The notes beneath the pieces are model-generated. The model saw only the letters and a program-made list of their open reading frames with translations, did not search any database and was not told the DNA's origin. 34,862 nucleotides of DNA. It comes from a bacterium (GTDB lineage Bacteria > Eisenbacteria > RBG-16-71-46). This document shows positions 3,208 through 34,679 of this stretch, piece after piece; position 1 is the stretch's first letter; the number at the start of each line of letters is the position of its first letter. A program made the translations under genes and the position numbers. The DNA lies in contig JAYWEM010000150.1 of the NCBI GenBank assembly GCA_043779265.1, positions 1 to 34,862 of the forward strand, in the 5' to 3' direction.

Positions 3208-6200
3208 ATGCGCCTCGTTCTCGCCGCGTTCGCTGTCCTCCTCACTTCCGCCTCGACGGCGCCGGCCACTGCGGCGACGATCGAGCGTGAGTTCAGTTTC
3301 GAGACCTCCCGCGTGCGCGTCGAGGTCGTCGATGGACTGAGCGTCGTCTCCGCACGTCGATCGATGCCGGAGACCGAGGCTGGACGCCCCGACCTGCCGT
3401 GGTTCGCGGAACTGGTCGACGTGCCTGCCGGACAGCGCGTCTCGCGAGTCGAGGTGGTTTCGCTCGAGACCGCGCCGCTGGCATCGCAGGCCCGCCTGGC
3501 TCCCGCCGTCTCGCCCAGCCCGGGGCTCGGCCCGATTCTGCGCTCCACTGCCGACGATCGGTTCTTCGAGGGCGAGGCGATGCAGCCCGAGGAGTTCGTT
3601 CGACTCGGCACGCAGGGCAACTTGCGCGGCCGCGGAGTCGCGGGTCTCCAGATCGCGGTCGCGAGGTGGCAGCCTGCGACGGGCAAGCTCGAACGCATCG
3701 TCCGCGTCCGAGTGCGTCTGACGCTCGAGGCCGACGGATCGGATGTCGTTCGCCGCGAGCGCATCGTCCCCGAGTGGGAGGACTCGCCGCTGACGCCGAT
3801 GGAGTTGCGTGGGGTTCAGGTGTCGTCGATGACCGGCCCGTCTCGCGAGCCCGTGCCCTTCCGTCCGCAGCAGGTCCCCTCGCTGCTCGGCAGCCCAGTC
3901 GCCTATCTCATCATCACCAATGACGCGATGACCCCGACGTTCCAGCAGCTCGCCGATTGGAAGACGCAGACGGGCGTGCCCGCCGTCGTCCGCTCGATGA
4001 CATTCGTCCGCCAGCAGTACCCGAGCGGCGCGGATGACGCGGAGAAGCTCCGTCTCTTCATCCGCGATGCTTACTCCCGGTGGGGTACGAAGTGGGTGCT
4101 CCTGGGCGGTGACACGGATGTGATCCCCGAGCGCCTCGCGCGCACGCGATTCTACGGCGGCGAGTACATCGTCGCGGACCTCTACTACAGCGCGCTCGAT
4201 GGCAACTGGAATGCGGACGGCGACAGTCTATTCGGCGAGGGCTACCTCAACTCGCTCGATCCGGGCGATGCGGCGGACCTCTTCCCCGAAGTCTACGTCG
4301 GCCGCGCAGCCGTCTCGACGGTGGCCGAGGCGCAGGTGTTCGTGAACAAGACCCTCCAGTACGTGCGCAATCCGGTCGGGGACTACGAGCACAAGATCCT
4401 CATGTTCTCCGAGGTCCTCTTCCCGCAGGACTGGAATCCGTCGCTCCAGACCTCCCTCGACGGCGCCGAGCTGACCGAGGAACTGCTGCCGCTGTTCGAC
4501 CAGAAGCCGGCCATGACGCTGACGCGCCTCTACGAGAACCATCTCGACCCGCGCTGGCGTCCCGGCTCCACGCTCGAGACCCGCAGTGCGGTCATCGCGG
4601 CCCTGAACGCCGGCAACAACGTGTCGATCCACATCGGCCACGGCTATCGCAATGTCATGTCGGTCGGCGATGCCTCGCTGACCAATTCGGATGCGTTCGG
4701 GCTGACCAACGGCAATCGGCTCTTCAACCTCTACGCGAACAACTGCACCTCGAACGCCATCGACTTCCCCTGCATCGGGGAGGCGTTCATGAAGAATCCC
4801 AACGGCGGAGCGGTCACGAACGTGGGCTCGACGCGCTTCGACTTCCCGACCACGGGCCGTGTCTATCAGGAGGAGTACTTCCGGCTGTTCATCGAGCAGA
4901 GCGTCACGGCGGTCGGTGAGCTGCAGGCGAGGCAGAAGCTCCCGTTCATCGCCTTCTCCACCTACGACGGCGTCAATCGCTGGACGCAGATGACCCTGCT
5001 GATGCTGGGTGATCCCGAGCTGCGCATGTGGCAGCCGGGTATCCGGACGCTCGCCGTGAGCCATCCCGCGGCGATCGCGGTCTCCGATTCGCAGGTCGCG
5101 GTCACGGTGACGAGCAACGCACTTGCCGTCTCCGGGGCGCGCGTGGTGGCCTACCGGCCCGGCGATGAGTACGTGATCGTCACGACCGATGCGCTCGGTC
5201 AGGCGACGCTGCCCTTCCGTCCGGATGATGTCGGCTCGTTCACGCTGACCGTCACCGCATTCAACGCGGTGCCCTATCAGGCGACCGTGACGATCGCGGC
5301 GACCGCGGGCGTCTCGCTGGCCGATGGCGCACGCACGATCGATGATGACAACATCGGCGGCACGATCGGTGACGGCGATGGGCTGATCGATGCCGGCGAG
5401 ACGATCGATCTGCGCATCCCGGTGATCAATCGTGGTGCGCTCACGGCCACGGGTGTCACCGCGTCGCTCTCGACCACGGACCCGCTGATCACCGTATCCG
5501 CGGGGTTCACCGTCCACGGCACGATCGCCGGTGGCGCGACCTCGAACCCGGCGTCGTCATACCGCATCTCGTTCCCTTACGATCTCGTGGACCAGCGGGA
5601 GGTCCCGTTCACGCTGCATCTCGCGTCGGGTGGGGTGAGGTGGACGGAGAAGTTCCAGTTGGTCGTGCGAGCCCCGGAGCTCTGGCACTACGGCCACACG
5701 TACAGTGAGACGGGCGGCACACCCAACGGCATTCCGGATGTGGGCGAGACGATCACTTATGGAATCCGTCTGCGGAACAACGGGACTGGAGTCGCCCGCG
5801 GCGTCAGTGTGAAGCTTCGCAGCTACGATGGGCTGGCCACCGTGCTCGACAGCACCTCGACGTTGGGGGATGTCGCGAGCGGCGTGGAGGCCACCGGCGA
5901 TGGTGTTCAGTTCGTCGTGAGCTCCACCAGCGCCAAGCTGGCCCTGGTTGTCTCCGACGTTTACGGGCAGTTGTTCACGCGTCTGCTCGATCTGACTCCT
6001 CCCACGGTGCCTGCGGGGATCGTCGGCACCGGCAAGGCCTCGAGCATGACACTCGTCTGGGCGCGGGCCACGAGTGCCGATCTGCTCGGCTACCATGTGT
6101 ATCGCAGTACCGCCCTGGCTGGCCCCTTCTCGCGTGTGACGCCCGTTCCAACCGGCCGAACGGCGTACTACAGTGATCAGAACCTCTCGGCACTGACTCG

Positions 6201-7908
6201 CTACTACTATCGCCTGACCTCCGTCGATTCCTCGGGCAACGAGTCGGCCCTCTCGCTGACGTCGAACGCCAGCACGAACCCGCCGACGCATGCGATCTTC
6301 CCGGTTCCGACGGGTCGCAATACGCCCGCCTCGACGGCACTCGAGTTCGTGTATCACGGCTCGCAGATGTCGATCTTCACGGGAGCCGACAAGGTCTACG
6401 TCATCAACGCGGACGGCAGTGCACCGGTCGACGCGGATGGGACGACGGTCACGACGGGTGATTTCAGTCTTCGCGGCGAGTACTTCGCCGCGGGACCCTC
6501 GGTGGCGACGCTGGCGCCGGGTCAGGGCTGGTCGGTGGTCGCTCCCTCGTGGGATTCGACCGCCGTCTACGTGTTCGACACGCAGGGGCAGGTGCGTCCG
6601 GGCTGGCCGCTCTACGTGAACAGTGGTCTGTGGTCGGCGGCCACCATCGGCGACATCGATGGCGACGGTGACATGGAGATCGCCTTCGGTTCGAACGGTC
6701 CCAACTTCTACGTCATGAACCACGACGGCACCGAGTACCGGGATGGCGATTCGAACCCGGCGACCAAGGGCGTGTTCAAGGTTCTCGCGTCGTCGTTCAA
6801 CTACGGCACCGCCGCCATGGCCGACATCGACAACGATGGTCTGGCCGAGATCATCTACGGCGGGTTCGACGGCCGACTCTACGCATGGAACGCGGATGGA
6901 AGCTCCGTTCCTGGTTTCCCGCTGGTGACCACCGGCAACATCACGGCGTCCGTTGCGATCGGCTATCTCGATGGCCCCGGCGACACGAGCCCCGAGATCA
7001 TCTTCCCGTCGACCAACGATTCGCTCTATGTGCTCCAGTCCAACGGACTTCGTCGTCCGGGCTGGCCGGTCTGGACGCGGACGTCCGGGTCGACGCGCAC
7101 GCCTTCTCCGGCTCTGGCGGACATCAACAACGACGGCTTCCTCGATATCGTCTGGCAGAGCACGAACGGCGGGCTCTACGTGTGGAACCGCACCGGCACG
7201 CTGATCCCGCCGTTCGGGAATCTGCGCTACAGCCCGTTCACCAATGGCGCCTCCGAGAGCAGCCCAGTCGTGGCGGACCTCAATGGCGACGGCTTCAACG
7301 ACATGCTGGTGGGTGATGAGACCGGGTTGCTGACCGCCTTCTCGGGCCTGAACGGACAGATCCTGGCGGGATTCCCGATCCAGCTCGAGGCCGAGATCCG
7401 CGGCACGGCGGCGGTCGGGGACATCGACCGCGACGGGATGACCGAGATCGTGGTGACGGGATGGGACAAGAACGTCTATGTGTGGGACTACGACTTCCCG
7501 TTCTCCCCGAACGGTCCCGCGCCGTGGCCGCAGTTCCATCACGATGCCCGCCGCACCGGATTCTTCAACGCCCCGCTGTTCGTGGGCGTCGACCCCGCTC
7601 CAGGCGGGACCGGGCCGGTGGCGAGAGTGGAGCTGAGTGCGGTGGCGCCGAATCCGGCGCGACACTCGACGAGACTCTGGTTCGGCGTTCCCGCCGAGAT
7701 GGCGGGGCAGTCCTACGAGATGGCGATCCACGATCTCTCCGGTCGCCTCATCAAACGGGTCGAGACGGGCGTTGCCTCCTCGGGTCGCTTCTCGCTCGAA
7801 TGGAACCTCCAGGGCGAGGACGGACGGCTGGTCGAAGGTGGCGTGTACTTCGCGCGCCTGACACTCGGCGGACAGAGCGCCACCAGGAAGCTCGTCGTCC
7901 TGCAGTGA
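3208..7908 (+). CDS. Secreted C25-family (gingipain-like) cysteine peptidase with propeptide, Ig-like repeats, FN3, FG-GAP repeats and FlgD-Ig/T9SS-like C-terminal domain
   Basis: Signal peptide; C25 propeptide-like GRPDLP; YLIIT, WVLLGGDTDVIP, DLYYSALDGNWNADGD, EVYVGR; catalytic His (HIGHG) and Cys (NNCTS); LLMLGDPEL; FN3 (LLGYHVYRS...YYYRLTSVDSSGNES); repeats GDIDGDGDMEI, ADIDNDGLAEI, ADINNDGFLDI, ADLNGDGFNDM, GDIDRDGMTEI; C-terminus APNPARH...GGVYFARL...RKLVVLQ. RBS AGGGAG upstream. Confidence 0.9.
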   Translation: MRLVLAAFAVLLTSASTAPATAATIEREFSFETSRVRVEVVDGLSVVSARRSMPETEAGRPDLPWFAELVDVPAGQRVSRVEVVSLETAPLASQARLAPAVSPSPGLGPILRSTADDRFFEGEAMQPEEFVRLGTQGNLRGRGVAGLQIAVARWQPATGKLERIVRVRVRLTLEADGSDVVRRERIVPEWEDSPLTPMELRGVQVSSMTGPSREPVPFRPQQVPSLLGSPVAYLIITNDAMTPTFQQLADWKTQTGVPAVVRSMTFVRQQYPSGADDAEKLRLFIRDAYSRWGTKWVLLGGDTDVIPERLARTRFYGGEYIVADLYYSALDGNWNADGDSLFGEGYLNSLDPGDAADLFPEVYVGRAAVSTVAEAQVFVNKTLQYVRNPVGDYEHKILMFSEVLFPQDWNPSLQTSLDGAELTEELLPLFDQKPAMTLTRLYENHLDPRWRPGSTLETRSAVIAALNAGNNVSIHIGHGYRNVMSVGDASLTNSDAFGLTNGNRLFNLYANNCTSNAIDFPCIGEAFMKNPNGGAVTNVGSTRFDFPTTGRVYQEEYFRLFIEQSVTAVGELQARQKLPFIAFSTYDGVNRWTQMTLLMLGDPELRMWQPGIRTLAVSHPAAIAVSDSQVAVTVTSNALAVSGARVVAYRPGDEYVIVTTDALGQATLPFRPDDVGSFTLTVTAFNAVPYQATVTIAATAGVSLADGARTIDDDNIGGTIGDGDGLIDAGETIDLRIPVINRGALTATGVTASLSTTDPLITVSAGFTVHGTIAGGATSNPASSYRISFPYDLVDQREVPFTLHLASGGVRWTEKFQLVVRAPELWHYGHTYSETGGTPNGIPDVGETITYGIRLRNNGTGVARGVSVKLRSYDGLATVLDSTSTLGDVASGVEATGDGVQFVVSSTSAKLALVVSDVYGQLFTRLLDLTPPTVPAGIVGTGKASSMTLVWARATSADLLGYHVYRSTALAGPFSRVTPVPTGRTAYYSDQNLSALTRYYYRLTSVDSSGNESALSLTSNASTNPPTHAIFPVPTGRNTPASTALEFVYHGSQMSIFTGADKVYVINADGSAPVDADGTTVTTGDFSLRGEYFAAGPSVATLAPGQGWSVVAPSWDSTAVYVFDTQGQVRPGWPLYVNSGLWSAATIGDIDGDGDMEIAFGSNGPNFYVMNHDGTEYRDGDSNPATKGVFKVLASSFNYGTAAMADIDNDGLAEIIYGGFDGRLYAWNADGSSVPGFPLVTTGNITASVAIGYLDGPGDTSPEIIFPSTNDSLYVLQSNGLRRPGWPVWTRTSGSTRTPSPALADINNDGFLDIVWQSTNGGLYVWNRTGTLIPPFGNLRYSPFTNGASESSPVVADLNGDGFNDMLVGDETGLLTAFSGLNGQILAGFPIQLEAEIRGTAAVGDIDRDGMTEIVVTGWDKNVYVWDYDFPFSPNGPAPWPQFHHDARRTGFFNAPLFVGVDPAPGGTGPVARVELSAVAPNPARHSTRLWFGVPAEMAGQSYEMAIHDLSGRLIKRVETGVASSGRFSLEWNLQGEDGRLVEGGVYFARLTLGGQSATRKLVVLQ

Positions 7909-10434: not shown

Positions 10435-11331
10435 ATGGCGGGTTGGCCGAGTCCGATCGCAGTCACCGGGCCCTTGGGCTTCGTGGCCGCCCATCTGCTG
10501 CCCCGACTGGATCACGCCGGGACCCAAGTGCTCGCCGTCGTGAGGCCGGGCAGCGACGCCCAGGCGCTTGGCCGCTTCGGCGGCGTGGAGATCCGGCGAG
10601 GGGACCTGTCCGATCCCGCTTCGCTCGGTGGATGTTTCGAGGGTGCGGCCGCGGTGATCCATCTCGCGGGACTGGCACTCGTTCCGGCGATGCTGCCGAC
10701 GATCGTCGCATCGGGGGTTTCGCGCGGTGTGTTCGTCAGCTCGGCGGGAGTCCACACGCGGCTCGTCAGTTCGGGCGCCGCTGCCAAGCGGGCGGGGGAG
10801 AAGGCGCTCGCCGACTCCACACTCGACTACACCATCCTGCGCCCGAGCATGATCTACGGGACGCCGCGCGACCGGAACATGGTGCGGCTGCTGAGATGGA
10901 TCGAGCGCTGGGGAGTGGTGCCGGCGCCGCTCGGCGGCATCACGCCACAGCAACCGGTGCATGTCGAGGACCTCGTGCAGGCGATCCTGGCCTCGCTCGT
11001 CCGCCCGGAGGCGGCGCGGAAGTCCTACGATGTCGGCGGCCCGACGGCCATTGATCTGCGGGAAGTCGTGCGGGCGGCGGCGGGGGCCCTGGGCCGTCGA
11101 GCGTACGTGCTGCCGCTGCCGCTGCGGCCGGCGCATCTGGCGGCCATCACCGCGAAGCGACTGCGAATGCCCTTCCCGGTGAGCCCGGAGCAGGTGCTGA
11201 GACTGGCCGAATCCAAAGCGGTGGACATCACTCCGGCGACCCGGGATCTTGGTTTCTCACCGAGAACCTTCGCCGAGGGCATCGCGGCTGAAGTGGCGAT
11301 GCTCCGCGGCGGCCCCTATCCCGGACAATGA
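10435..11331 (+). CDS. NAD-dependent epimerase/dehydratase family protein (atypical SDR)
   Basis: IAVTGPLGFVA Rossmann motif, GDLSD, VIHLAG, FVSSAGV, TILRPSMIYG, QPVHVEDLVQAI. Confidence 0.88.
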   Translation: MAGWPSPIAVTGPLGFVAAHLLPRLDHAGTQVLAVVRPGSDAQALGRFGGVEIRRGDLSDPASLGGCFEGAAAVIHLAGLALVPAMLPTIVASGVSRGVFVSSAGVHTRLVSSGAAAKRAGEKALADSTLDYTILRPSMIYGTPRDRNMVRLLRWIERWGVVPAPLGGITPQQPVHVEDLVQAILASLVRPEAARKSYDVGGPTAIDLREVVRAAAGALGRRAYVLPLPLRPAHLAAITAKRLRMPFPVSPEQVLRLAESKAVDITPATRDLGFSPRTFAEGIAAEVAMLRGGPYPGQ

Positions 11332-11436: not shown

Positions 11437-11624
11437 GCGCCCGGGGGAACTGGTCAAGGTCGGACGGCCCCGGTGCACCTGCGACAGCCGTGCTGGCCTC
11501 GAACCTTGGAAGTGCCGATGCTCCAACGGAGCGAGGCCAGTATCCACCCCTCGAATCCTGCCCCTGTTCCGGAACCTCCGGGACCGGAGTCGGGGTGTAC
11601 CGTGCGCCGAGAGGACCCGGGCGC
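11437..11624 (+). ncRNA. Candidate structured RNA or 5' leader of unknown family
   Basis: Nested stems found by eye: 11437-45/11616-24 (9 bp), 11471-85/11589-11602 (14 bp), 11491-11501/11532-42 (11 bp), 11566-72/11578-84; begins just after the predicted promoter. Confidence 0.45.
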
Positions 11625-11681
11625 GGTCGATCTTCGCGATCGCGAAGGTACGAGAGTGGATCGGTCCACACTCCCCACTTC

Positions 11682-14270
11682 ATGACCTTCCGCAAGGCAC
11701 CGAGATTCCTTCTGCTGACGATGACCTATGCGGCCATCGTCAACCTCTCCTACCTGGGCGCGCTGCTGCTGCGCTTCGAGGGGGATGTGCCGGCGCGTTT
11801 CGCGAGCGGCTACCGGGAAATCGCGCCCGCTTTCACGCTGCTGAGTCTGCTCGGCTTCTTCCTCGCCGGCCTGTTCCATGGACTGTGGCGATATGCCAGC
11901 ACGGTGACGCTCTTCCAGATCTTCAAGGGCGTCACACTCTCGGCCGCATCGCTCGTGGTGCTCATGCTGTTCATCCCCGAACAGCTGTTCCCGCGAAGCC
12001 TGATCGTGCTCGTGTGGCTGATCGAACTCGTGCTCGTGGGCGGCGTTCGGTTCTCGTGGCGTCTCGCGCGCGAGAAGGTGCTCGGCCCGTTCTCCGGTCA
12101 TGCCGTGCCGACGCTGGTCATCGGCGCGGATCACGCCGCCGTCAATCTGGTGCAGGAGATGCGGCGTCGCCTCTCGGGTGACGAATCGCTGATGCCCGTG
12201 GGGTTCCTCGATGACGACGAGCGCCTGACCGGCCATCTGCTCGAAGGACTCAAGGTGCTCGGGACGGTGGCGGATCTGCCCGAGGTGCTCAGGGCCCGGC
12301 ATGTCGAGATGGTCGTCGTCGCCGATCCGGACATCCCCGGCCGTGTTCTGCGCGAGATCGCACGCGTCTGCACGGATGCCTCGGTTCGCGTCAAGACCCT
12401 GCCCGGCCTGTCCGACGTCCAGAACACGGGACGCACGTCGCTCGCACAGATGCGCGACATCCGGATCGAGGACCTGCTGGGTCGTGAGCCCGTGCAGCTC
12501 GACCTCGATGAGGTCGGATCGTTCCTTCAGGGGCAGCGTGTCCTGATCACGGGTGCCGGCGGGTCGATCGGCTCCGAACTGGTCCGGCAGGTCGCGGAGT
12601 TCGGCCCGGCCGAGATGGTCATGTTCGATCACGCCGAGAACGGGCTCTACTTCATCCACAATGAGCTGGTGTCGCAACGGCCGGGCTATCCCGTGCACGC
12701 GATCGTTTGCGACATGCGCGATGCCGAGGGTGTCGAGTCGTGCTTCGCTCGTTTTCGGCCGACGGTCGTGTTCCATGCCGCCGCGCACAAGCACGTGCCA
12801 CTTCTCGAATCGAGTCCGCGTGAGGCGGTGCTCAACAACATCGTGGGGACGCGCAATCTGGTCGATGCCGCGGATCGCGTCGGGGTCCAGAAGTTCGTCC
12901 TCATCTCGACGGACAAGGCAGTCAATCCCACCAGTGTCATGGGCGCCTCCAAGCGCGTCTGCGAAATGCTGTTGCAGAGCGCGAGTCAGCGCAGCGCGAC
13001 TCGATTCTGCGCCGTGCGATTCGGCAACGTCCTCGGTAGCGATGGCTCGGTCATCCCGCTCTTCCAGCGCCAGATCCAGCGCGGTGGGCCGCTGACCGTG
13101 ACGCATCCCGAGGCGAGACGATTCTTCATGAGCATCCCCGAGGCGGTGCGATTGGTGCTGCAGGCCGGCGCGATGGGCCGCGTCGGCGAGGTGTTCGTCC
13201 TCGACATGGGAGAGCAGGTCCGCATTCAGGATCTCGCTCGCCAGTTGGTCCGTCTCGCTGGGCTGCGCGAAGGGGAGGACATCGAGATCGTGTTCACCGG
13301 CTTGCGCCCGGGCGAGAAGCTCTTCGAGGAGTTGCACTCCCACAGCGAGCGCACTCGCATCACACGCCACGAGCGCATTCTGACGTGGGATCTGACCTCC
13401 GAGGAGGAGGGCGTCCTGCGGCGCGATGTCGCTGAACTCGAGCGCCTGTCCGTCATCGGGGAGCCCATCGCGATCAAGAAGCAGTTGCATGCGATCGTCC
13501 CCGAGTACCGCGAACCGACGCCCGATGAACTCCGCCTCCAGCCGACACCGGCGAAGGAGGACGTTCTGCTGCCCGCCTCGTCGGTCGTGGCCCCGGCAGC
13601 GACGAACCCATCGTGGCCCGAGCGGGCGAGACAGTCGGTCGACGTCGTTCTTGCGACGCTGTTGCTGGTGCTCAGTGCGCCGATCTGGATCGCGCTGCTG
13701 CTGGAGGCCAGGTTGCGTGGCAAGAAGAGCATCCTGTTCCGCGAGACTCGGATCGGGCGCACCCGGCGCCAGGGTCAGCGCCGCGCGGGTCGCCAGGAGA
13801 TGGCGATCGACCGGCGCAACATCGAGCGCCGAACGCAGAATCTACTGGGCGAGCCGGTGGCCTGTTCCCGCTTCCGCCACGACCTCGGCCCGATCAGCCG
13901 ACTGTGCGCCCGGCACCGCCTCGACAAGTTGCCGTGGCTGTTCAACGTGATCCGCGGCGAGATGGCCATCGTCGGACCGAAGCCGGAGAAGGAGGAACTC
14001 GTGCTCCGCTGGCACCATTTGGTCCCCGACTATGAGCGCCGCTTCTCGGTGCTGCCGGGAATGACGGGCCTCGCTCAGGTCTCGGGCATCTCGGATAGCG
14101 ATGCCGAAGGCGTGGTCCGTCGCGTGCACTACGACCTGTTCTATGTCGAACGCCGTTCGCTGTTGCTCGATCTCCGGACGATGGCTCGCACGCTCTCGGT
14201 GGTCATCCGACGCCCGCGCGGACTTCGCCCCATGCCAGCAGCCTCGGTCGATGTCAGGCCTGCTGCTTGA
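11682..14270 (+). CDS. capD: CapD/PglF-type UDP-sugar 4,6-dehydratase fused to a degenerate C-terminal monotopic phosphoglycosyl transferase (Bac_transf) domain
   Basis: Four N-terminal TMs; IEDLLGREPV, VLITGAGGSIGSELVRQ, FHAAAHKHVP, ISTDKAVNPTSVMGASKR, VRFGNVLGSDGSV, TGLRPGEKLFEEL; from about 13620 VDVVLA..LSAP..LDKLPWLFNVIRGEMAIVGPKPE..PGMTGLAQV..YDLFYV. Start moved from 11490 to ATG 11682. Confidence 0.92.
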   Translation: MTFRKAPRFLLLTMTYAAIVNLSYLGALLLRFEGDVPARFASGYREIAPAFTLLSLLGFFLAGLFHGLWRYASTVTLFQIFKGVTLSAASLVVLMLFIPEQLFPRSLIVLVWLIELVLVGGVRFSWRLAREKVLGPFSGHAVPTLVIGADHAAVNLVQEMRRRLSGDESLMPVGFLDDDERLTGHLLEGLKVLGTVADLPEVLRARHVEMVVVADPDIPGRVLREIARVCTDASVRVKTLPGLSDVQNTGRTSLAQMRDIRIEDLLGREPVQLDLDEVGSFLQGQRVLITGAGGSIGSELVRQVAEFGPAEMVMFDHAENGLYFIHNELVSQRPGYPVHAIVCDMRDAEGVESCFARFRPTVVFHAAAHKHVPLLESSPREAVLNNIVGTRNLVDAADRVGVQKFVLISTDKAVNPTSVMGASKRVCEMLLQSASQRSATRFCAVRFGNVLGSDGSVIPLFQRQIQRGGPLTVTHPEARRFFMSIPEAVRLVLQAGAMGRVGEVFVLDMGEQVRIQDLARQLVRLAGLREGEDIEIVFTGLRPGEKLFEELHSHSERTRITRHERILTWDLTSEEEGVLRRDVAELERLSVIGEPIAIKKQLHAIVPEYREPTPDELRLQPTPAKEDVLLPASSVVAPAATNPSWPERARQSVDVVLATLLLVLSAPIWIALLLEARLRGKKSILFRETRIGRTRRQGQRRAGRQEMAIDRRNIERRTQNLLGEPVACSRFRHDLGPISRLCARHRLDKLPWLFNVIRGEMAIVGPKPEKEELVLRWHHLVPDYERRFSVLPGMTGLAQVSGISDSDAEGVVRRVHYDLFYVERRSLLLDLRTMARTLSVVIRRPRGLRPMPAASVDVRPAA

Positions 14271-14392
14271 TTCACGTTCCCCGCCTCCACGGCGCTGATC
14301 CGTCGGTGGCATGCACTATCATGTCGAAGACTCCCCATGCTCGGAAGCCCTGCGCTCGCCGATCGGCGAACGCGACGTCCAGGAGGGACCGG

Positions 14393-15361
14393 ATGCGTCC
14401 AGATCTCATTCGCCGCGCGGGGCTCGCACTCGCGTCACTGTCGTTCGCTGTCTCGATCCTGATGGCGATCCCCGCACGTGCCGCTGACTACGTGCTCGGC
14501 GCGGAGGACGTGATCCAGGTGTCCGTGTGGCTCCATCCGGAGCTCGAGCGGACGCTGACCATCCGCGCTGATGGAAGCGTGACGTTGCCGCCGGTCGGGG
14601 ACCTCAAGGCCGCCGGCCTGACGCCCAAGCAATTCGGCGATCGCACGGCGGATCGCCTCTCGGCCTATCTGCGACAGACGACGACCGTGACCGTGACGGT
14701 GACGCAGTACATGAGCCAGAGCGTTTTCGTTCAGGGTTCCGTGGCCAAGCCGGGACGATTCGGATTCGAGACGATCCCCTCGCTGGTCGATGTACTCGCC
14801 CAGGCGGGTGGCGCTCTGCCGGGAACGAATCTCGCGGCGGTGCAGGTCGTGCGGCGTGAAGGCGAACAGACACGGATGCTCGCTGCCGACATCGCGTCGG
14901 CACTGCGGACCGGCGACACGAGTGCACTGCCGACCCTGCGGCCGGGGGACACGATCATCCTGCCCGGAACGGGCGCCGCGACCTCGAGCACCAGTGGCGA
15001 AGGAGTCGCCGTGCTGGGCGAGGTCGGGAATCCCGGACTCTATCCGGCAGGGGAGCAGTCCGATCTGTGGACCATGCTCGCGCTCGCGGGCGGTATGACC
15101 AATCGAGGTCGGCTCGAAGACGTCCGTCTCCTCACACGTGGCAATGCCGGCGTCACCGTGGCGGTCATCGACTTGCGACAGGTGCTGGACCGCGGCAGTC
15201 GAGCCCCTCATCTCGTGCGCCCGGGCGATGTCGTGGTCGTGATGCCCAAGGGACAGGGCTTCTGGAGTGGCATGACGACCGTGCTCGGCCTGTCGCGCGA
15301 TGCGCTCAACGTGCTCCTCCTCGTGGACTACTTCGACAAAAAGAGTGGAACGAGCAACTGA
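14393..15361 (+). CDS. wza: Polysaccharide export protein (OPX/Wza-like, Poly_export plus two SLBB domains)
   Basis: AGGAGG RBS; signal peptide ending ARA-A; DYVLGAEDVIQVSVW, IRADGSVTLPPVGDLKAAGLT, VQGSVAKPG, VLGEVGNPG, LRPGDTI, VRPGDVV. Confidence 0.9.
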   Translation: MRPDLIRRAGLALASLSFAVSILMAIPARAADYVLGAEDVIQVSVWLHPELERTLTIRADGSVTLPPVGDLKAAGLTPKQFGDRTADRLSAYLRQTTTVTVTVTQYMSQSVFVQGSVAKPGRFGFETIPSLVDVLAQAGGALPGTNLAAVQVVRREGEQTRMLAADIASALRTGDTSALPTLRPGDTIILPGTGAATSSTSGEGVAVLGEVGNPGLYPAGEQSDLWTMLALAGGMTNRGRLEDVRLLTRGNAGVTVAVIDLRQVLDRGSRAPHLVRPGDVVVVMPKGQGFWSGMTTVLGLSRDALNVLLLVDYFDKKSGTSN

Positions 15362-17616
15362 TGAACTCCCATCCCCCGAACGAGCCGGCTCACGCGGACC
15401 GCGCTCAGATGGATCTGGGCGAGATGCTGCGCATGCTGTGGCGTCGGCGCTGGCTGCTGGTCGCGCCCTGGCTCACGGCGATCCTGGTCGCCGTGGCCGC
15501 GGCGGTTCTCTTGCCGCCCGTATTCGTCAGCCGAGCGATGCTCGTGCTCGATCGGGGCCAGAGCCTGCAGGGACCTTCGGGGCAGCTGACGGGCGGCTCG
15601 GGACTGGATCAGCAGGCTGAGATCATGAAAGAGCAGGTGCAGAGCGGGACGTTCCTGCGCGCGGTGCTCGCCGCGACCGGCGTCACTCGCGACGCCAGCA
15701 CGCGGGCGTGGGCGCGCAAGGAATCCGCGAAGTACCCGGGGACCAACGAAGATGAGCAGTTCGAGATGTTCATGGCCGATCATCTCCGCGAGAACGTCGC
15801 GATCAAGCGAAGCAAGGGCCAGTTGTTCGAGATCCAGGTCAGCGACATCGACGGCGAGCGCGCGCGATTGTTCGGGGATGCCATCGCGAATCAGATCGTC
15901 GAGAGTTCGAAGGCGCGGCAGCTCGAGCAGATCCGAGCCGGCCAGGAGTTCAGCTCGGAGCAGGCACTCATCTACAAGCGCCGACTCGAGGAAGCGGAGT
16001 CACGGCTTCGCTCGGCCGAGTCCGCCGCGATCTCCACGAGCGTCGTCGGGACGGCGGTCAGCAGCTTCAACCTGAACTTCGCCCAGACGCTCGCCGACCA
16101 GGCCTCCATCGAAGCGGACGAGCTGCGGCTCCGTCTCGCGGACTTGCGCACGCAGTCGGCGGGCCGACTGCGTGAGAACGATCCCGCGCTGTTGACCGGT
16201 ACCGAGATCTCCAACCTCTCGAGCCAGATCACGTCGCTCGAGGGACAGCTGGGGAGAGCGTTGCTCAGCGAGGCGTCGTTCACCGGAGGCACCAGCGTGA
16301 GATTGCTGCTCGCGCGTAAGAGTGCCGACCTCGAGCTCGCGCTCGCCACGGCCGCCGCACGTGCGCTGCCCGGGCTCGCACCGGATGCCCGCGATCTCGC
16401 GGTGCGAATCCGGCTGGCTCAGGTCAATGCCAATGCGAAGGACGCGTGGAGAGGCTGGGTGCAGGGGCAGATCATCGCGTATCAACGGCAGGTCGTGAGT
16501 TCCCCCGGTCGCCAGATGGAGATCGAACGGCTGCGGGCGGACGTCGAGTCGGCGCGGCAGATCTACAACACGTTCACGTCTCAGAGCGCGTCGATGACGA
16601 TCCAGGAGGCGTTCCAGAACGCCAAGCTCAGCGGGCGGTTCATCGTTCAGAATCCAGCGAGCCGGCCGTTGTCGCCCTCCAAGCCGAATCGTGCGCTTCT
16701 CGTCCTGCTCGGCGTGGTGATCGGCTGCATCCTCGGCGTCGGCACCGTGCTGGTGGCGGAGCACAACGACCCGTCCATGAAGAACGCCGAAGAGGTGGAG
16801 ACGATCCTCGGCCTGCCCGTGTTGGGGGCGATTCCCCGCGTGGATGAACTCGATCGATCGAAGCAGCGACGGTCGCGAGGTCCTGCCCCGGGCCCCGGTG
16901 TGCTGCCGGCGCCTCGCGATCACGGTCTGCTGCACCGACTGAAGGTGGAGAGCCCGCTCGGGTTGGAGTTCAAGCGCATCTACCTGAACCTCGCGCGCTC
17001 TCGCGGACGCGAGCTGCCGAAGACGCTGATGATCACGAGCTCGACTCGCGGCGAGGGCAAGACGACGACGAGCGCCTGTCTCGGGATCACGCTGGCGCGT
17101 GAGCATCGGGCCCGCACGCTGCTCGTCGATTGCGACTTGCGCAGTCCGGCGCTGCATCGCGCCCTCGGCATGCCCAGTTCAAGTTGGGGTGTGGCGCAGA
17201 TGTTCCAACAGCGCCACTTCGATGAGCGGTTCATCCGGCAGACCTCGCTCCCGACGCTCGATTTCCTCGCGGCAGGACGCAGCGAGCGCGCGGCGGCGGA
17301 GTTGATCGAGCAGGATGCCGTCGAGTGGTTCCTGCGGGAAGCGCAGCAGCGCTACGACCTGGTCGTGCTCGATACCGCGCCCAACCTCGCTGTTCCCGAC
17401 CCGCTGATCATCGGGCGCGTGGTCGAAGGCGTGCTCTACGTGGTCAAGGCCGGTCAGACCGTACGGAAGGCCGCCGAGTACGGAGTGAAGGTGCAGCGCG
17501 AGGCCAGGGACAATCTCATCGGAGTGCTGATGAACGATGCCGGTGAGTTCCTGCCGCAGTACTACGGGTACAAGCAGCAGTACTACGGTTACACGTCCGA
17601 GGTGGTCGAGGGCTGA
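15361..17616 (+). CDS. wzc: Polysaccharide co-polymerase / BY-kinase (Wzc-like)
   Basis: Wzz-like N-terminus MDLGEMLRMLWRRRWLL, coiled coil, PSKPNR plus second TM, LGLPVLGAIP, Walker A SSTRGEGKTT, LLVDCDLRSP, VVLDTAP, tyrosine cluster QYYGYKQQYYGY. The ATG overlaps the wza stop (TGATG). Confidence 0.93.
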   Translation: MNSHPPNEPAHADRAQMDLGEMLRMLWRRRWLLVAPWLTAILVAVAAAVLLPPVFVSRAMLVLDRGQSLQGPSGQLTGGSGLDQQAEIMKEQVQSGTFLRAVLAATGVTRDASTRAWARKESAKYPGTNEDEQFEMFMADHLRENVAIKRSKGQLFEIQVSDIDGERARLFGDAIANQIVESSKARQLEQIRAGQEFSSEQALIYKRRLEEAESRLRSAESAAISTSVVGTAVSSFNLNFAQTLADQASIEADELRLRLADLRTQSAGRLRENDPALLTGTEISNLSSQITSLEGQLGRALLSEASFTGGTSVRLLLARKSADLELALATAAARALPGLAPDARDLAVRIRLAQVNANAKDAWRGWVQGQIIAYQRQVVSSPGRQMEIERLRADVESARQIYNTFTSQSASMTIQEAFQNAKLSGRFIVQNPASRPLSPSKPNRALLVLLGVVIGCILGVGTVLVAEHNDPSMKNAEEVETILGLPVLGAIPRVDELDRSKQRRSRGPAPGPGVLPAPRDHGLLHRLKVESPLGLEFKRIYLNLARSRGRELPKTLMITSSTRGEGKTTTSACLGITLAREHRARTLLVDCDLRSPALHRALGMPSSSWGVAQMFQQRHFDERFIRQTSLPTLDFLAAGRSERAAAELIEQDAVEWFLREAQQRYDLVVLDTAPNLAVPDPLIIGRVVEGVLYVVKAGQTVRKAAEYGVKVQREARDNLIGVLMNDAGEFLPQYYGYKQQYYGYTSEVVEG

Positions 17617-26090: not shown

Positions 26091-27205
26091 TGCACGTGGT
26101 CGAGGCCATGCATCAGGGCGGCGCCGAGTCGTTGGTGATCGAGCACGTGCGCCGCGCGGCTCGCGGGATCGAGAGCTTCGTGGTCGCGCTGAATCGAGGC
26201 GGCCCCTCACTCGAGGCGGCCCAGGCGGCTGGGGCGACCTGTCATGTCCTCGGCAAGGGCGGCGCGCGCGCGAGCGGCCTCGTGCGACTGACGCGGCTTT
26301 TGCGTGAGCATCGGATCGATGTCGTGAACGGGCACAATCCGACGGGGGCGCTCTACGGCACGATCGCGGCGCGGCTTGCGGGCGTACCGGTCGTGATCCG
26401 AACCGAGCACAGCATCCACTATCCGGGGCGGGGCTTCCGATTCTATGGACCGATCGAGGCCGTGCTGACGGCGCTCTCCGACCGCGTCATCTGCGTCTGC
26501 GAGGCTTCGCGAGCGAGTCACGCACCGCGCTTCGCATGGGCGGGCGGACGATTCGTCACTGTCGCCAACGGGATCTCCGAGGAGAGCGAGCGCCCGGATC
26601 GCGCTAGCGCTCGCCGGGAACTCGGGATCCCGATGGACGCGCGTGTCGTCCTCACGGTCGGGAGCCTGACGCCGCAGAAGTCCCAGGATGTCCTGCTTCG
26701 CGCCTTCTCGGAAGTCGCGCGTGCGATCCCCGAGGCGCTCCTCTTGATCGCGGGCGAGGGACGACTCGAGGCGCGGCTGCGGGCACTCCACTCGGAACTG
26801 GCCCTTGGCGAGTCGGCGCGATTCCTCGGCGCCCGTGGCGATGTCCCCCTGCTGATGGCCGCGTGCGATGTGTTCGTGCTCTCCAGTTCACGAGAAGGGC
26901 TTTCCGTCACGCTGCTCGAGGCGATGCGCGCCGGGCGCGCCTGTGTCGCGACCGACGTCGGTGGCAATCCCGAGGCGGTCGCCGATGGCGAAACCGGCCG
27001 GATCGTGCCGATGGGCGACCCCGAGGCTCTAGCGGGTGCGCTGCGGGACCTGCTCTCGGATGTTGCGGGCTGCGCGCGAGCGGGCGAATCGGGAGAGCGA
27101 CGGTTCCTCGAACGATTCACTGCGGCCCGCATGGTCCGTCAGACCGAGGCGATCTACGCGGATGCCCTCATCGCGAAGGGGAGGCTCGCACATGAGCCGG
27201 CTTGA
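26081..27205 (+). CDS. Glycosyltransferase family 4
   Basis: MRVMHVV..GGAE, TEHS, VANGI, VGSLTPQKSQ, SSSREGLSVTLLEAM, TDVGGNPE. Confidence 0.92.
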   Translation: MRVMHVVEAMHQGGAESLVIEHVRRAARGIESFVVALNRGGPSLEAAQAAGATCHVLGKGGARASGLVRLTRLLREHRIDVVNGHNPTGALYGTIAARLAGVPVVIRTEHSIHYPGRGFRFYGPIEAVLTALSDRVICVCEASRASHAPRFAWAGGRFVTVANGISEESERPDRASARRELGIPMDARVVLTVGSLTPQKSQDVLLRAFSEVARAIPEALLLIAGEGRLEARLRALHSELALGESARFLGARGDVPLLMAACDVFVLSSSREGLSVTLLEAMRAGRACVATDVGGNPEAVADGETGRIVPMGDPEALAGALRDLLSDVAGCARAGESGERRFLERFTAARMVRQTEAIYADALIAKGRLAHEPA

Positions 27206-28322
27206 GCCCACGGGCACCTTGCTCGGAACGCTGGCCGCGCTCGGCGACATCGGCGTCGTGGGCAGCGCGCGTCTCCGTGCGTCGAGCGAGGGCTGGGACG
27301 CCCCGTTCGCTTCGCTTCGGCCGCTGCTCGCGGATGCCGACGCGGCCTTCGCGAATCTCGAGTTCCCGATCGGAGAGCGCGCGTGGGTGCGCGAGGGGCG
27401 TTCGGAGGAATTCTTCCACGACGCCGACGTGGCCGGCGCGCTCGTGCGCGCCGGCGTGAGCGTCGTATCGCTTGCGAACAACCACATGATGGATTGCGGT
27501 CCGCAGGGACTGACGCGCACGCTCGAGGTCTGCCGTGCCGCCGGACTCGCGACCGTCGGCGCAGGTGAGGACCTCGCGACTGCTCGCACGCCGTGGCGAG
27601 CCACGTTGAATGGACGTCGGTGGGTGATGTTGGCCTACGGGACGACCCAGGGGGATGCGGCGAGCGTCACATCACCCGGCATCGCACCGCTCGAGGCCGC
27701 ACTCGTCGCAGCCGATATCGCGCGTTGGCGTCCCGAGGCAGATGTGCTGGTGGTGAGCGCTCATTGGGGCTCGATGTACGTGGACTATCCGCCGCCTCGC
27801 GTGCTCGAGGCGGCGAAAGGTATCGCCGCTGCCGGTGCCGACATCGTGCTCGGCCATCATCCGCACGTGCTGCAAGGCGCCGAGCGGGTCGGCCGGTCCC
27901 TGGTGGCCTACAGCCTCGGTGATGCGGTCTTCAACTGCCGCGCAGGCGACTTCCACTCGCAGGTGGCGGCCGACAAGCGTCTGGAGAGTGGCGTGTTCCT
28001 TGCGCAGGCGGCGAGCGATGCGCATGGACTGACGCTTCGGCCCACGCGCCTCGACCAGGATGGGTTCCCCGGTGTCGTGAGCCTGGCGGACGCTGAGGCC
28101 TCGATCGAACGCTGGAACGGACTCTCTGCAGGCCTCGCCGCAGGCGAGCGCGCTTTCGCCGAGGGCAGCGCTTCCACGCTGCTGCAGTACGAGGTGCAGA
28201 GCCTCGCGACGTATGTGAGGCAAGGCAGGTGGGGGCGCGTGCTGCGCCTGCTCGGAAGTGTCCGGCCACGTCACTTGCCCGTGCTGTGGCATGCCCTTTC
28301 GAGAAGGGCGGGTCCGCGATGA
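27192..28322 (+). CDS. CapA/PgsA family (PGA_cap) metallophosphoesterase-fold protein
   Basis: ALGDI, FANLEFP, SLANNHMMDCG, SAHWG, GHHPHVLQ, YSLGDAVF. Confidence 0.88.
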   Translation: MSRLEPTGTLLGTLAALGDIGVVGSARLRASSEGWDAPFASLRPLLADADAAFANLEFPIGERAWVREGRSEEFFHDADVAGALVRAGVSVVSLANNHMMDCGPQGLTRTLEVCRAAGLATVGAGEDLATARTPWRATLNGRRWVMLAYGTTQGDAASVTSPGIAPLEAALVAADIARWRPEADVLVVSAHWGSMYVDYPPPRVLEAAKGIAAAGADIVLGHHPHVLQGAERVGRSLVAYSLGDAVFNCRAGDFHSQVAADKRLESGVFLAQAASDAHGLTLRPTRLDQDGFPGVVSLADAEASIERWNGLSAGLAAGERAFAEGSASTLLQYEVQSLATYVRQGRWGRVLRLLGSVRPRHLPVLWHALSRRAGPR

Positions 28323-31369: not shown

Positions 31370-33175
31370 ATGCGCATTCTCTTCCTCACGCAGTACTTCC
31401 CTCCGGAGACCGGAGCGGCTCCGGTGCGCGCGCTGCATCTGGCACGCGCGCTCGTCCGCGCCGGGCACGAAGTGCGCGTGCTGACCGGCCTGCCGAATCA
31501 TCCCTCCGGGGAGGTCGCGGCGGACTATCGGGGAGCAGCCGGCCGGCGTGAGGAAATGGAGGGGATCGGGGTCGAGCGTGTCTGGCTGTGGGCCAGCCCG
31601 CGCAAAACGGCGGTGTCGCGCTTGATGAACCATGCGAGTTTCGCCGCGTGTGCACTCGGGCCGGCGCTGCGGGGCCCTCGCCCTGACATCGTGATCGCGA
31701 GCACGCCGCCGTTGTTCCATGGCGTGACCGCACTGCTGGCCTCGCGCTGGCACGGCGCGGCATTCGTGGATGACTGTCGTGATGACTGGCCCCACGCTGC
31801 GATCGCCCTCGGCGAGATGCGCGAGGGGTTGGTGGCCCGTGCACTGGATGCAGTCGCGCAGTCCTTCCAACGCCGCGCCAGCCGCATCTTCGTCGTCACG
31901 CCCGGGATGCAGCGCCAGCTCGCCTCGCGTGGCTTCGAAGCCCATCGCCTCGTGTACCTTCCGAATGGGGCCGACACGGAGCTCTTCCGTCCCGCACCGT
32001 CTGACGCGCGACCGGAGCGGCCATTCACGGTCGTGTATGCGGGCACCCATGGGCTCGTGCATGGGATGGATGCGTTGCTCGATGCCGCCGCTCTGCTCTC
32101 GGGCGAAGGTGTTCACATGCGATTCGTGGGCGACGGCGTGGCGCGACCGGGTCTGGAGCGACGCGCGCGTGAGCAGGGCCTCGAGCACGTTCGATTCGAG
32201 GACAGCGTGCCGCCGGAGGAACTCGTCGGCATCCTGCAATCGAGTGACGCGTGCCTGGCGACGACCCGGGCCAGCGCCTTCGCGGGCGAGACCGTCCCGG
32301 TCAAGTTGTTCGACTCGCTCGCCTGCGGTGTGCCGCTCGTGGCGGCGGTGCGTGGGGATGCGGCCGCCGTGGTCGAGGCTTCGGGGGGCGGGCTCGTCGT
32401 CGATCCGGAGGATGGAGCCGCGATCGCCGGTGCCATCCGACAGTTGCGCGACGATCCTGCGCTGCGCCAGCGACTCGCCTCCGCCGGACCGGTCTGGGTC
32501 GCAGAGCATCGTTCGAGGCGGGCGCTCGGGGCGGCCGCATCTCGGGTGCTGGAAGCGGTTCGACAGGAGAAGCATGGTCGCGCCATCCCCCACAAACCAG
32601 AGGGACTGCACCGCGGGCTCAAGCGCATGATCGATGTCGTGACGAGTCTGACGGGGCTCGTACTCGGGGCACCGGTCATGCTGGGCATCGCAGTGGCGAT
32701 CCGGTTGGATTCGGCTGGTCCGGTGCTCTTCCGACAGCGACGCAGTGGGAGGGGCTCGAGCGAGTTCGTCATGCTCAAGTTCCGGAGCATGGCCGCGGGG
32801 ACTCCGGATGTCGCGACCCACCTGGTCGATCCGAGCGCGATCCGCGTGACGCGCGTCGGGGCCTTCCTCCGCCGCACCAGCCTCGATGAGTTGCCGCAAC
32901 TGTGGAACATCCTGCAAGGTGACATGTCGCTCGTCGGGCCTCGACCCGCGCTCCACAATCAGCACGATCTCATCGCACTGCGCCAACAGGCGGGTGTGGA
33001 CGCCCTCGTTCCGGGGTTGACGGGATGGGCGCAGGTGAACGGACGAGACGATATCCCGATGGACCGGAAAGTGGCGTTCGATCGCGAGTACCTCGATCGC
33101 CTCTCGCTGCCGCTCGACCTGCAGATCCTCATGCGCACCGCACTCGCGGTGTTCACCGCCCGGGGGGCCCGTTGA
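31370..33175 (+). CDS. Fusion of GT4 (WbuB/CapL-like) and monotopic phosphoglycosyl transferase (CapM/PglC-like)
   Basis: MRILFLTQYFPPETGA..LTGLPNHPSG, YAGTHGLVHG, PVKLFDSLACG; then KRMIDV..GPVLFRQRR..KFRSM..TPDVATHL..LRRTSLDELPQLWNILQGDMSLVGPRP..PGLTGWAQVNGRD. Confidence 0.92.
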   Translation: MRILFLTQYFPPETGAAPVRALHLARALVRAGHEVRVLTGLPNHPSGEVAADYRGAAGRREEMEGIGVERVWLWASPRKTAVSRLMNHASFAACALGPALRGPRPDIVIASTPPLFHGVTALLASRWHGAAFVDDCRDDWPHAAIALGEMREGLVARALDAVAQSFQRRASRIFVVTPGMQRQLASRGFEAHRLVYLPNGADTELFRPAPSDARPERPFTVVYAGTHGLVHGMDALLDAAALLSGEGVHMRFVGDGVARPGLERRAREQGLEHVRFEDSVPPEELVGILQSSDACLATTRASAFAGETVPVKLFDSLACGVPLVAAVRGDAAAVVEASGGGLVVDPEDGAAIAGAIRQLRDDPALRQRLASAGPVWVAEHRSRRALGAAASRVLEAVRQEKHGRAIPHKPEGLHRGLKRMIDVVTSLTGLVLGAPVMLGIAVAIRLDSAGPVLFRQRRSGRGSSEFVMLKFRSMAAGTPDVATHLVDPSAIRVTRVGAFLRRTSLDELPQLWNILQGDMSLVGPRPALHNQHDLIALRQQAGVDALVPGLTGWAQVNGRDDIPMDRKVAFDREYLDRLSLPLDLQILMRTALAVFTARGAR

Positions 33176-34038
33176 CCTCCAGCTCACTGCCGCTCGCCAT
33201 GCCTGCCCATCGCGGATTGATGGCACAGGGCATCGCGCTGCTCGCGATGGTGGCGCTCGTCCATCATCGGACGTTCGTGTCGCTGTGGCAGACGTGGCAC
33301 ACCAACGAGAACTACTCGCACGGACCGCTCGTGCCGCTCGTCACGCTGTTCCTCATCTGGGATCGGCGCGACCGGCTCCGCGCGGCGGCGATCTCCCCGG
33401 ACTCGCGGGGCCTGGCGCTCACGGCAGCCGCCTGCCTCATGCAAATCGTGGGCGTTCGTGCGGACGTGTTCGCCCTGCAGTGCTGGTCGCTGCTGCCGCT
33501 CATGCTCGGGCTGGCCATGACGTTCCTCGGAACGCGGATCGCACGGATGCTCACCTTCCCGGTGCTCTACCTCGGTTTCATGCTGGTGTTCCCGCCGGTC
33601 GTGATGAATCAGTTGAGTTTCCAGCTCAAGGAGATCGCGCTCTCGGGTGCGACCGCGCTGGCGCCGCTGCTCGGTGCCGATCTCCGCGTCGACGGGATGT
33701 CGATTTTCGTCGGAGGCGGAGAACTACGAGTGGAGGACCCGTGCTCGGGGCTCCGCTCACTTCTCGCCCTGATCGCGACCGGCACGTTGTTCGCCTACTT
33801 GCAGCCCGGAGGCGGATGGCGGCGAGCAGCCGTACTGCTTGCCACCATCCCGATCGCGGTCGCGAGCAATGTCCTCCGACTGCTCGCGCTCATCCTCGCC
33901 GCCGATGCGAAAGGTGTGGTGTGGGCCGCCGCCGGGTTCCATGACGTGATGGGCTATGTGCTCTATGCGTTCGCGCTGCTCGTTCTGATCGGTATCCGCG
34001 GACTCCTCTCGCCGCGCGCCAAGGCGGTGGTCCGATGA
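33172..34038 (+). CDS. Exosortase (EpsH/Xrt family)
   Basis: ENYSHGPLVP, FPVLYLGFMLVFP, catalytic Cys VEDPCSGLRS, Arg SNVLR, His FHDVMG. Start is TTG 33172 (overlapping the upstream stop) or ATG 33199. Confidence 0.92.
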   Translation: MTSSSLPLAMPAHRGLMAQGIALLAMVALVHHRTFVSLWQTWHTNENYSHGPLVPLVTLFLIWDRRDRLRAAAISPDSRGLALTAAACLMQIVGVRADVFALQCWSLLPLMLGLAMTFLGTRIARMLTFPVLYLGFMLVFPPVVMNQLSFQLKEIALSGATALAPLLGADLRVDGMSIFVGGGELRVEDPCSGLRSLLALIATGTLFAYLQPGGGWRRAAVLLATIPIAVASNVLRLLALILAADAKGVVWAAAGFHDVMGYVLYAFALLVLIGIRGLLSPRAKAVVR

Positions 34039-34679
34039 TGCGGTTCGTCCTGACGATGCTGATGCTGCTCGGCAGCGCGGCGACCGTCTGGCTCCAGCCA
34101 CCGGTCGATCTCGAGGCGGGGCGCGGCCTGCTGAGGCAGGTGCCCCATGCTTTCGGTTCCTGGAAGGGCGTCGAACTGCAGTTCGAGGAGACGGTCGTGG
34201 ATGAGCTGCGCGCCGACGACATCCTCATCCGTCGCTACGAGCAGGGCGAGCAGATCGCCTGGCTCTGTGTCGTCTATCATCAGAATCGCCGCTACGGTGC
34301 CCATGATCCCCTCGTCTGCTACGAGTCGCAGGGTTTCGTGCTCGGCGAGGAGGGCCATCGCGAGGTGAAGCGCCCGGGCGCCGAGCCGATGGTGGTCAAT
34401 ACATTCGTGGCCGATCGTCGCGGCCGCGAGCGCCTGGTCTGGTACTGGTGGACGACCGACGGTCTGACGACTTCGGATGCCAATCGATTCCGAGGCCGAA
34501 TGGCGATCCTGGGTGCGCTCGAGAATCGCTCGTGGGGAGCCTTCGTCCGAGTCGAGATGATCGTCGGCGCGGGTGGTCGTGAGCAGGCCGAGGCGTCGCT
34601 TGAGGAGTTCGCGACGCTCGTGGCGACTGAGATGCCGACCGTCTTCGCTCGGGCGCGGAACGGGTCCGGACGCCCGTGA
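34035..34679 (+). CDS. epsI: EpsI family exosortase-associated protein
   Basis: VPHAFGSWKG, LRADDILIRRY, HDPLVCYESQG, LVWYWW, GAFVRV; directly follows the exosortase with ATGA overlap. Confidence 0.88.
   Translation: MMRFVLTMLMLLGSAATVWLQPPVDLEAGRGLLRQVPHAFGSWKGVELQFEETVVDELRADDILIRRYEQGEQIAWLCVVYHQNRRYGAHDPLVCYESQGFVLGEEGHREVKRPGAEPMVVNTFVADRRGRERLVWYWWTTDGLTTSDANRFRGRMAILGALENRSWGAFVRVEMIVGAGGREQAEASLEEFATLVATEMPTVFARARNGSGRP

Follow-up and report, generated by a model that had tools for sequence, protein, structure and literature searches.

A PglF/CapD-type dehydratase with a conserved, probably inactive phosphoglycosyl transferase domain and an Arg-rich insert heads a Wzx/Wzy-type operon in Eisenbacteria

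The window analysed here is a stretch of 34,862 nucleotides (contig JAYWEM010000150.1, forward strand) and contains a Wzx/Wzy-type operon headed by a gene in which a dehydratase is fused to a phosphoglycosyl transferase (PGT) domain. The single open frame spans 11490-14270, and the database protein (P0001, 862 aa) begins at the ATG at 11682. On this one chain CoA_binding_3, Polysacc_synt_2 (E 2e-114) and Bac_transf (E 1e-31) were matched by Pfam. The gene is followed by wza, wzc, a flippase, GT2s, a ligase/polymerase, a deacetylase, GT4s, a GT4-PGT fusion, an exosortase and EpsI.

10435..11331, + strand: upstream short SDR (Pfam NAD_binding_10/Epimerase), also upstream in loci L081 and L083
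11682..14270, + strand: fused gene, composed of four transmembrane helices (4TM), CoA_binding_3 (DUF), PglF/CapD-type 4,6-dehydratase, linker and pseudo-PGT (Pfam, model)
11697..12080, + strand: four predicted membrane helices, residues 6-133, like PglF and large PGTs (model helices; N-terminal architecture common to both, PMC10942596)
12525..13409, + strand: SDR dehydratase domain (E 6e-79 against C. jejuni PglF, 5BJU), with TDK (12909-12917) and MGASK (12939-12953) both intact
13605..14231, + strand: pseudo-PGT domain (Bac_transf) with predicted PglC fold (Pfam, model, Foldseek)
13614..13715, + strand: predicted re-entrant membrane helix with Pro667 (13680-13682; Pro in 105 of 106 listed homologues; alignment, model)
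13755..13850, + strand: Arg-rich insert G692-G723 with four Arg-Arg pairs and an RRxx[D/N] end, a candidate c-di-GMP-binding loop (sequence; pLDDT about 60)
13869..13922, + strand: RFRxD (KFRSM equivalent) abutting the pre-dyad helix, mobile loop of 16 residues, R88 equivalent Ala (13908-13910)
13923..13928, + strand: Asp-Lys (codons GAC AAG) replacing the Asp93-Glu94 dyad
13977..13985, + strand: PKP replacing PRP, R112 equivalent Lys
14393..17616, + strand: wza and wzc, immediately 3' of the fused gene (Pfam)
31370..33175, + strand: GT4-PGT fusion with intact KFRSM, DE (32885-32890) and PRP (Pfam, motifs)
33025..34679, + strand: exosortase and EpsI, mark of a PEP-CTERM-type exopolysaccharide locus (Pfam)

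Every motif cited in an earlier note on this DNA was found at its stated position. In the fused domain LSAP starts at 13671, RFRHD at 13869, LDKLPW at 13920 (D, GAC, 13923-25; K, AAG, 13926-28), VGPKPE at 13971 and PGMTGLAQV at 14055; in the second PGT of the operon KFRSM starts at 32777, LDELPQ at 32882 and VGPRP at 32933. The full-length model reached a pTM of 0.55, with the mutual placement of the domains not fixed. A complex prediction of DUF plus SDR (138-633) with the PGT domain (642-848) in the presence of c-di-GMP and NAD scored 0.00, which counts neither for nor against an interaction; ligands are unscored by the method. Elsewhere in the window, PGA_cap (CapA-like) and GNAT/FemAB-like genes lie within the polysaccharide operon (27036-30484) and suggest amino-acid decoration of the glycan, and a 1566-aa peptidase C25 (PorU/gingipain-like) protein that contains FG-GAP repeats and has a tail of FlgD/T9SS type is encoded upstream of gltX (3208-7908).

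Homologues were collected with query residues 700-926, which gave 172 matches; 106 of the 120 listed, the protein itself included, have both PF02719 and PF02397, and counts out of 106 below refer to these listed fused proteins. In the dehydratase half 4TM, DUF, PF02719, GxxGxxG, TDK and MxxxK were all present, and among the homologues STDKAV was found in 101/106, SSDKAV in 5/106 and MGASKR in 102/106. The TDK motif is catalytic in PglF/CapD dehydratases. Motifs and operon together suggest a UDP-GlcNAc 4,6-dehydratase, which would make UDP-4-keto-6-deoxy-GlcNAc, and the upstream short SDR (10435..11331) is a candidate C4 reductase for this product.

The fused domain was found at E < 1e-40 in 59 of the 89 genomes of its own family, with frames of at least 862 codons in 52 of the 59, and additionally in three genomes from two sister families; several of the fused homologues are labelled Candidatus Eisenbacteria. 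The same query gave no match in the 18 of 18 genomes of genus g14. A quick tree built from 140 rows separated the 56 fused-type rows from the rest at a branch with SH-aLRT 96, six short rows being called fused from similarity only and long-branch attraction being possible. The combination of dehydratase and PGT is not unique, since three clusters of the ESM Atlas (812-832 aa, one of them perhaps the protein's own cluster) are labelled PF02719 plus sugar-transferase. DE-intact dehydratase-PGT fusions did not appear among the best 120 of 6358 matches to a small-PGT query, which is weak evidence, and a dead monoPGT domain, the fused family or a c-di-GMP-binding PGT did not appear in searches of a full-text collection with few subscription papers. 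Fusions of PGTs to sugar-modifying enzymes are already a known class. Two database entries deserve a remark of their own: in L084 (17344-19898, genome G096) a frameshift within the dehydratase splits the fused gene and may be an assembly error, and P0070 (1250 aa) joins the fusion to Wza domains, either as a true triple fusion or as a read-through artefact.

The dyads of the 106 listed proteins were DK (81), DR (9), DT (3), DQ (2), DE (1) and ten more singletons. The codon after the Asp position is AAG in 24 of the 27 genome loci. Among six deep members the dyads are DR (3), DL, DH and HT, and the relatives from the sister families have DK, DR, DL, DH or HT, never DE. The lone DE member, P0099, is nested in the fused clade and is devoid of the loop, K59 and R112. 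Logan contigs from runs X1 and X2 were identical to 13000-14588 with a single letter throughout at a depth of about 12, a match that is not independent, as these runs are perhaps the source sample.

Selection was estimated with codon models for 27 loci of the fused gene, 30 of the active PGT, 25 of GT4 and 26 of Wza, all biased to close relatives because they were taken from the 30 best matches per search. Under the MG model omega was 0.141 for the PGT domain, 0.110 for the insert, 0.114 for the active PGT, 0.117 for GT4, 0.139 for Wza and 0.065 for the dehydratase; the GY model gave 0.091 for the PGT domain, 0.069 for the active PGT, 0.074 for GT4, 0.077 for Wza and 0.040 for the dehydratase. 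The helix region by itself evolves faster (omega 0.33). Pairwise NG86 ratios (PGT domain 0.40, active PGT 0.34) serve for ranking only, because they are inflated by GC3 bias. The fused PGT domain is under purifying selection. A sequencing error or a relic in neutral decay could be imagined from the single base that separates AAG from GAG and from the faster helix region, but with DK in 81 of the 106 listed clusters, long frames in 52 of 59 genomes and omega far below 1 this explanation is barely credible. The earlier note had argued against a sequencing error at the Asp-Lys pair, and homologues (DE in 1/106 listed), the AAG codons and the concordant X1/X2 contigs bear this out; neutral evolution, named there as a possible refutation, is at odds with omega values of 0.09-0.14.

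Glu94 and Arg112 are needed for monoPGT catalysis. PMC10541605 describes the Asp as nucleophile, K59 as essential and the role of the dyad in monoPGTs, and PMC10519829 describes binding of Und-P by R88 and R145 of PglC and closure of loop 61-81 over the ligand. With PglC numbering taken from the 8E37 alignment, the listed proteins showed K59>R in 104, M63>D in 104, R88>A/G in 92, E94>K in 82, Q97>aromatic in 94, R112>K in 75 (R in 6) and R145>C/I in 85 of 106. Position 61 is separated from the dyad by 16 residues in 106/106, versus 33-36 in 63 of 65 DE-intact relatives, and the mobile loop of PglC is shorter by about 18 residues in 106/106. Two or more of eight canonical residues are retained in only 3/106. 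The copy studied has neither the Asp-Glu dyad nor Lys59, Arg88, Arg112 (PRP) and the mobile loop 61-81 of active monoPGTs, and its score against the Bac_transf profile is 110 bits (cut-off 27). The model of the domain had a pLDDT of 89.9, and Foldseek aligned it to PglC and WbaP (E 7.5e-12, TM 0.65-0.75). Judged from these residues, the fused PGT domain very probably has no transferase activity.

Asp93 is kept in 98/106, which by itself counts against a dead domain; the exceptions include IT, ST, GG and NK. Invariant positions without a catalytic role are G692, R696, G723, W669, R776, R787 and F788. Yet since a nucleophile would be expected to be invariant, as many structural positions are, the count of 98 speaks against this role of Asp93. 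It could still be proposed that the Asp remains a nucleophile and that Lys or Arg replaces Mg2+ in a transferase or hydrolase whose chemistry is new: a basic residue follows at the dyad in 92/106 (K 82, R 10), the operon of genome G101 holds no other PGT, and the nested P0099 has DE. Such a remodelled enzyme is, however, highly improbable, as the Asp is missing in 8/106 and in deep members, P0099 has lost the loop, K59 and R112, and G101 has a DS dyad and a PGT elsewhere in its genome.

The residues lost bear equally on the proposal that the old active site still takes up Und-P, UMP or a UDP-sugar, does not turn it over, and signals its presence to the dehydratase. The retained fold, re-entrant helix, Asp93, GP-x-P, PG-x-TG and D-x-x-Y, and the charge preserved by K59>R and R112>K, would suit such a sensor. 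In PglC (PMC10519829), however, R88, R145 and loop 61-81 are tied to binding of Und-P or nucleotide, and a uridine-nucleotide site is already available in the DUF, to go by WbaP (PMC10942596); R145 is also missing from DE-intact PGTs with the insert, which is a caveat to that part of the argument. Because the residues that bind these ligands are the residues lost, a substrate sensor is improbable.

A DE-intact PGT in the same operon as the fusion is usual, and two more are encoded on other contigs of this genome. The GT4-PGT at 31370-33175 is, from its intact motifs, the likely initiating transferase of the locus, and would load the keto-sugar or its reduced form onto Und-P. All 30 of 30 fetched orthologues have DE. 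An orthologue occurs in 50 of the 59 genomes with the fusion versus 2 of the 30 other genomes of the family, counts that are not independent among kin, and in 25 genomes it lies on the same contig as the fusion, 8-19 kb downstream. The union of GT4 with an intact PGT, seen family-wide, would link the first sugar transfer to the second. Its best plasmid match is a Rhizobium PGT (54% identical) adjoining a CapD-type dehydratase, presumably the pair wreU-wreV; PMC11257628 lists WreU with UDP-KdgNAc, which is what PglF makes. In the deep loci of G041 and G042 a separate DE-intact PGT stands beside a DegT aminotransferase and a hexapeptide acetyltransferase.

The surroundings of the fusion vary. 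In 29 of the 30 loci L001-L030 the fusion is followed by wza where DNA is present, or by the locus end first (L011, L019); in L025 it is followed by wzc. The contiguous operon of G101 (98% complete) has no GT4-PGT orthologue, and in its locus L092 (1855-5400) GT4, PGA_cap-like and methyltransferase genes run through to exosortase and EpsI without a PGT gene. In the reduced loci of G133 (L091), G132 (L098) and G148 (L065) a single GT4 and a pair of genes for a histidine kinase and a sigma54 regulator come after the fusion; wza and wzc are missing in G133 and G132 and only wza in G148, and the fused dyads are IT, ST and DR, respectively. Because the domain is retained in G101, G132, G133 and G148, it tracks the dehydratase rather than one partner gene, and its persistence without wza, wzc or a second PGT at the locus (G132, G133, G101) argues for action in cis. 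Channelling to the second PGT, one form of the first-step channelling proposed in the earlier note, is weakened by the 9 of 59 fusion genomes without the orthologue and by the operon of G101. Of the overall reading given there, the conserved pseudo-PGT stands (its inactivity as a probable interpretation), and the Und-P or UDP-sugar sensor and the channelling are weakened. Two larger features, the shortened mobile loop and the Arg-rich insert, are absent from that note.

The same variation weighs on the idea that the dead domain is a scaffold, which tethers the dehydratase to the membrane and links it to Wzc, the active GT4-PGT or a partner subunit, with the Arg-rich loop binding anionic lipid or an acidic protein surface. 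New conserved surface positions (the EKEELVLRW helix with R776 in 106/106, and W669) and the co-occurrence of the second PGT in kin genomes, 25 times on one contig, fit this idea, as does the phosphorylation of the PGT CapM at a conserved Tyr by a BY-kinase of S. aureus, described in PMC6441080. Four membrane helices are already present in the protein, however, the domain is kept in loci without wza/wzc or a second PGT, and the fixed spacing and terminal D/N of the insert exceed the specificity that a lipid-binding basic patch needs. A scaffold is therefore rather unlikely, and we favour, with somewhat less than even confidence, a conserved, likely dead PGT that serves as a membrane-anchored regulatory module and acts in cis on the dehydratase via some ligand.

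The insert of 32 residues, which would be the likely ligand site of this module, sits between two beta-strands in the low-confidence part of the model (pLDDT about 60). Its conservation roughly equals that of the core (90% or above in 44% of its columns; omega 0.11). RRxxD at a fixed register was found in 98/106 listed fused proteins (RRxxN in the other 8, own copy included) and in 30/78 DE-intact insert PGTs, compared with at most 4 in a shuffle control that takes no account of shared ancestry. The first half of the insert carries T/S-RR with a spacing of 19 or DRR with a spacing of 3 in the fused family, and [DN]RR stands at its start in 69/78 DE-intact insert PGTs. The copy studied (Asn at 13839-41) and the deep branch have Asn where RxxD has Asp. 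The pattern occurs once in its own genome. The insert alone matched nothing among PDB sequences at E up to 10, and domain residues 45-100 retrieved from the ESM Atlas only Bac_transf clusters, all under 0.9.

An insert of the same kind is present in stand-alone PGTs whose KFR(S/T)M, loop, DE and PRP are all complete (63 of 138 parsed among the best 150 representatives, 12 being unparsed), and such PGTs also occur in related genomes. HMM alignments to WbaP matched the insert to the mobile loop; this placement was rejected, as DE-intact relatives have insert, KFR(S/T)M and loop together. DE-intact small PGTs whose beta-hairpin contains a G-x-[DN]RR...RRxx[D/N] insert are widespread (L066-L076, L078-L080 and a subset of P0138-P0270); the one in L079 immediately precedes wza-wzc and is close to an exosortase and a kinase-regulator pair. 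Outside the fused clade, the stand-alone insert PGTs P0225 and P0156 have AE/GPKPE or DD, possibly as independent catalytic losses.

According to PMC7382256 and PMC5677366, the Cle peptide binds dimeric c-di-GMP via DRR-x11-(R/K)RxxD, and in PMC7382256 it is unfolded unless the ligand is present. The Cle core DRR-x11-(R/K)RxxD was found in 0/106 listed fused proteins and 2/78 DE-intact insert PGTs, and the Cle/CSP tandem [YF]xGP[DE][RK]R in 0/106 and 1/65, respectively. Because 0/106 fused proteins carry the strict motifs, the insert resembles Cle without being a member. The DE-intact insert PGT P0160 has the exact CSP c-di-GMP core spacing. GGDEF genes were found in 89/89 family genomes with or without the fusion, and their presence is therefore not discriminating. 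By analogy, c-di-GMP would be the likeliest ligand of the insert, a doubtful assignment.

A simple history and mechanism can be outlined. An active insert-bearing PGT would have been joined behind CapD and would have lost catalysis, the insert being the reason for its retention, and another PGT would have taken over the transfer; since the tree leaves the sister group open, this descent is argued from the shared insert and motifs. The present domain, with most catalytic and substrate-binding residues gone, would be kept by selection for a purpose other than transfer. By analogy with Cle, ligand binding may fold the insert and gate flux at the first committed step. In a wider and equally tentative version, for which we see considerably less than an even chance, the Arg-rich insert would be a c-di-GMP receptor in monotopic PGTs, controlling the active small PGTs and, through the dead copy, placing the dehydratase under c-di-GMP. 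If true, a second messenger would directly gate the first steps of the Wzx/Wzy pathway, whose post-translational control is incompletely understood, c-di-GMP control being mainly known for synthase-type pathways (PMC12802240). The insert of the widespread DE-intact small PGTs is possibly a more important lead than the fused protein. Work on monotopic PGTs treats them as enzymes and as drug targets, and a clade-wide selected pseudo-PGT would show a non-catalytic use of the fold and warn that a PF02397 match need not be an initiating transferase.

Compared with known systems, the fused protein resembles the membrane-bound UDP-GlcNAc 4,6-dehydratases PglF, CapD and WbpM (PF02719) in 4TM, DUF, SDR, TDK and MxxxK and differs from them by about 250 additional C-terminal residues, the pseudo-PGT. 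The N-terminal likeness of PglF and WbaP is termed puzzling in PMC10942596, where the DUF of WbaP offers a uridine-nucleotide site; the fused protein combines these shared N-terminal domains with both types of C-terminal domain on a single chain. With the monotopic PGTs PglC (5W7L, 8G1N, 8E37) and WbaP (8T53; PF02397) its last domain shares the predicted fold, the re-entrant helix with Pro, Asp93, GPxP, PGxTG and DxxY, whereas Glu94, Lys59, Met63, Arg88, Arg112, Arg145 and most of loop 61-81 are absent and a 32-residue Arg-rich insert is present within the beta-hairpin. As in the known bifunctional monoPGTs (fusions with acetyltransferase, GT and other sugar-modifying enzymes; PMC11257628 and PMC10186338), a PGT is linked to a pathway enzyme, but here the PGT half is degenerate throughout one clade. 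EpsZ-EpsW of Myxococcus, as described in PMC12802240, is similar in that a Wzx/Wzy pathway is regulated post-translationally at its start and different in that an active large PGT is turned on by a separate receiver protein. To the Arg-rich region of Cle and the CSP peptide (Caulobacter; PMC5677366, PMC7382256) the insert is similar in its about 30 residues, tandem Arg-Arg, terminal (R/K)RxxD and attachment, as in Cle, to a domain that has lost its ancestral chemistry; it differs in having neither [YF]xGP nor the stacking Tyr, in its spacing, and in being an internal loop instead of a C-terminal tail.
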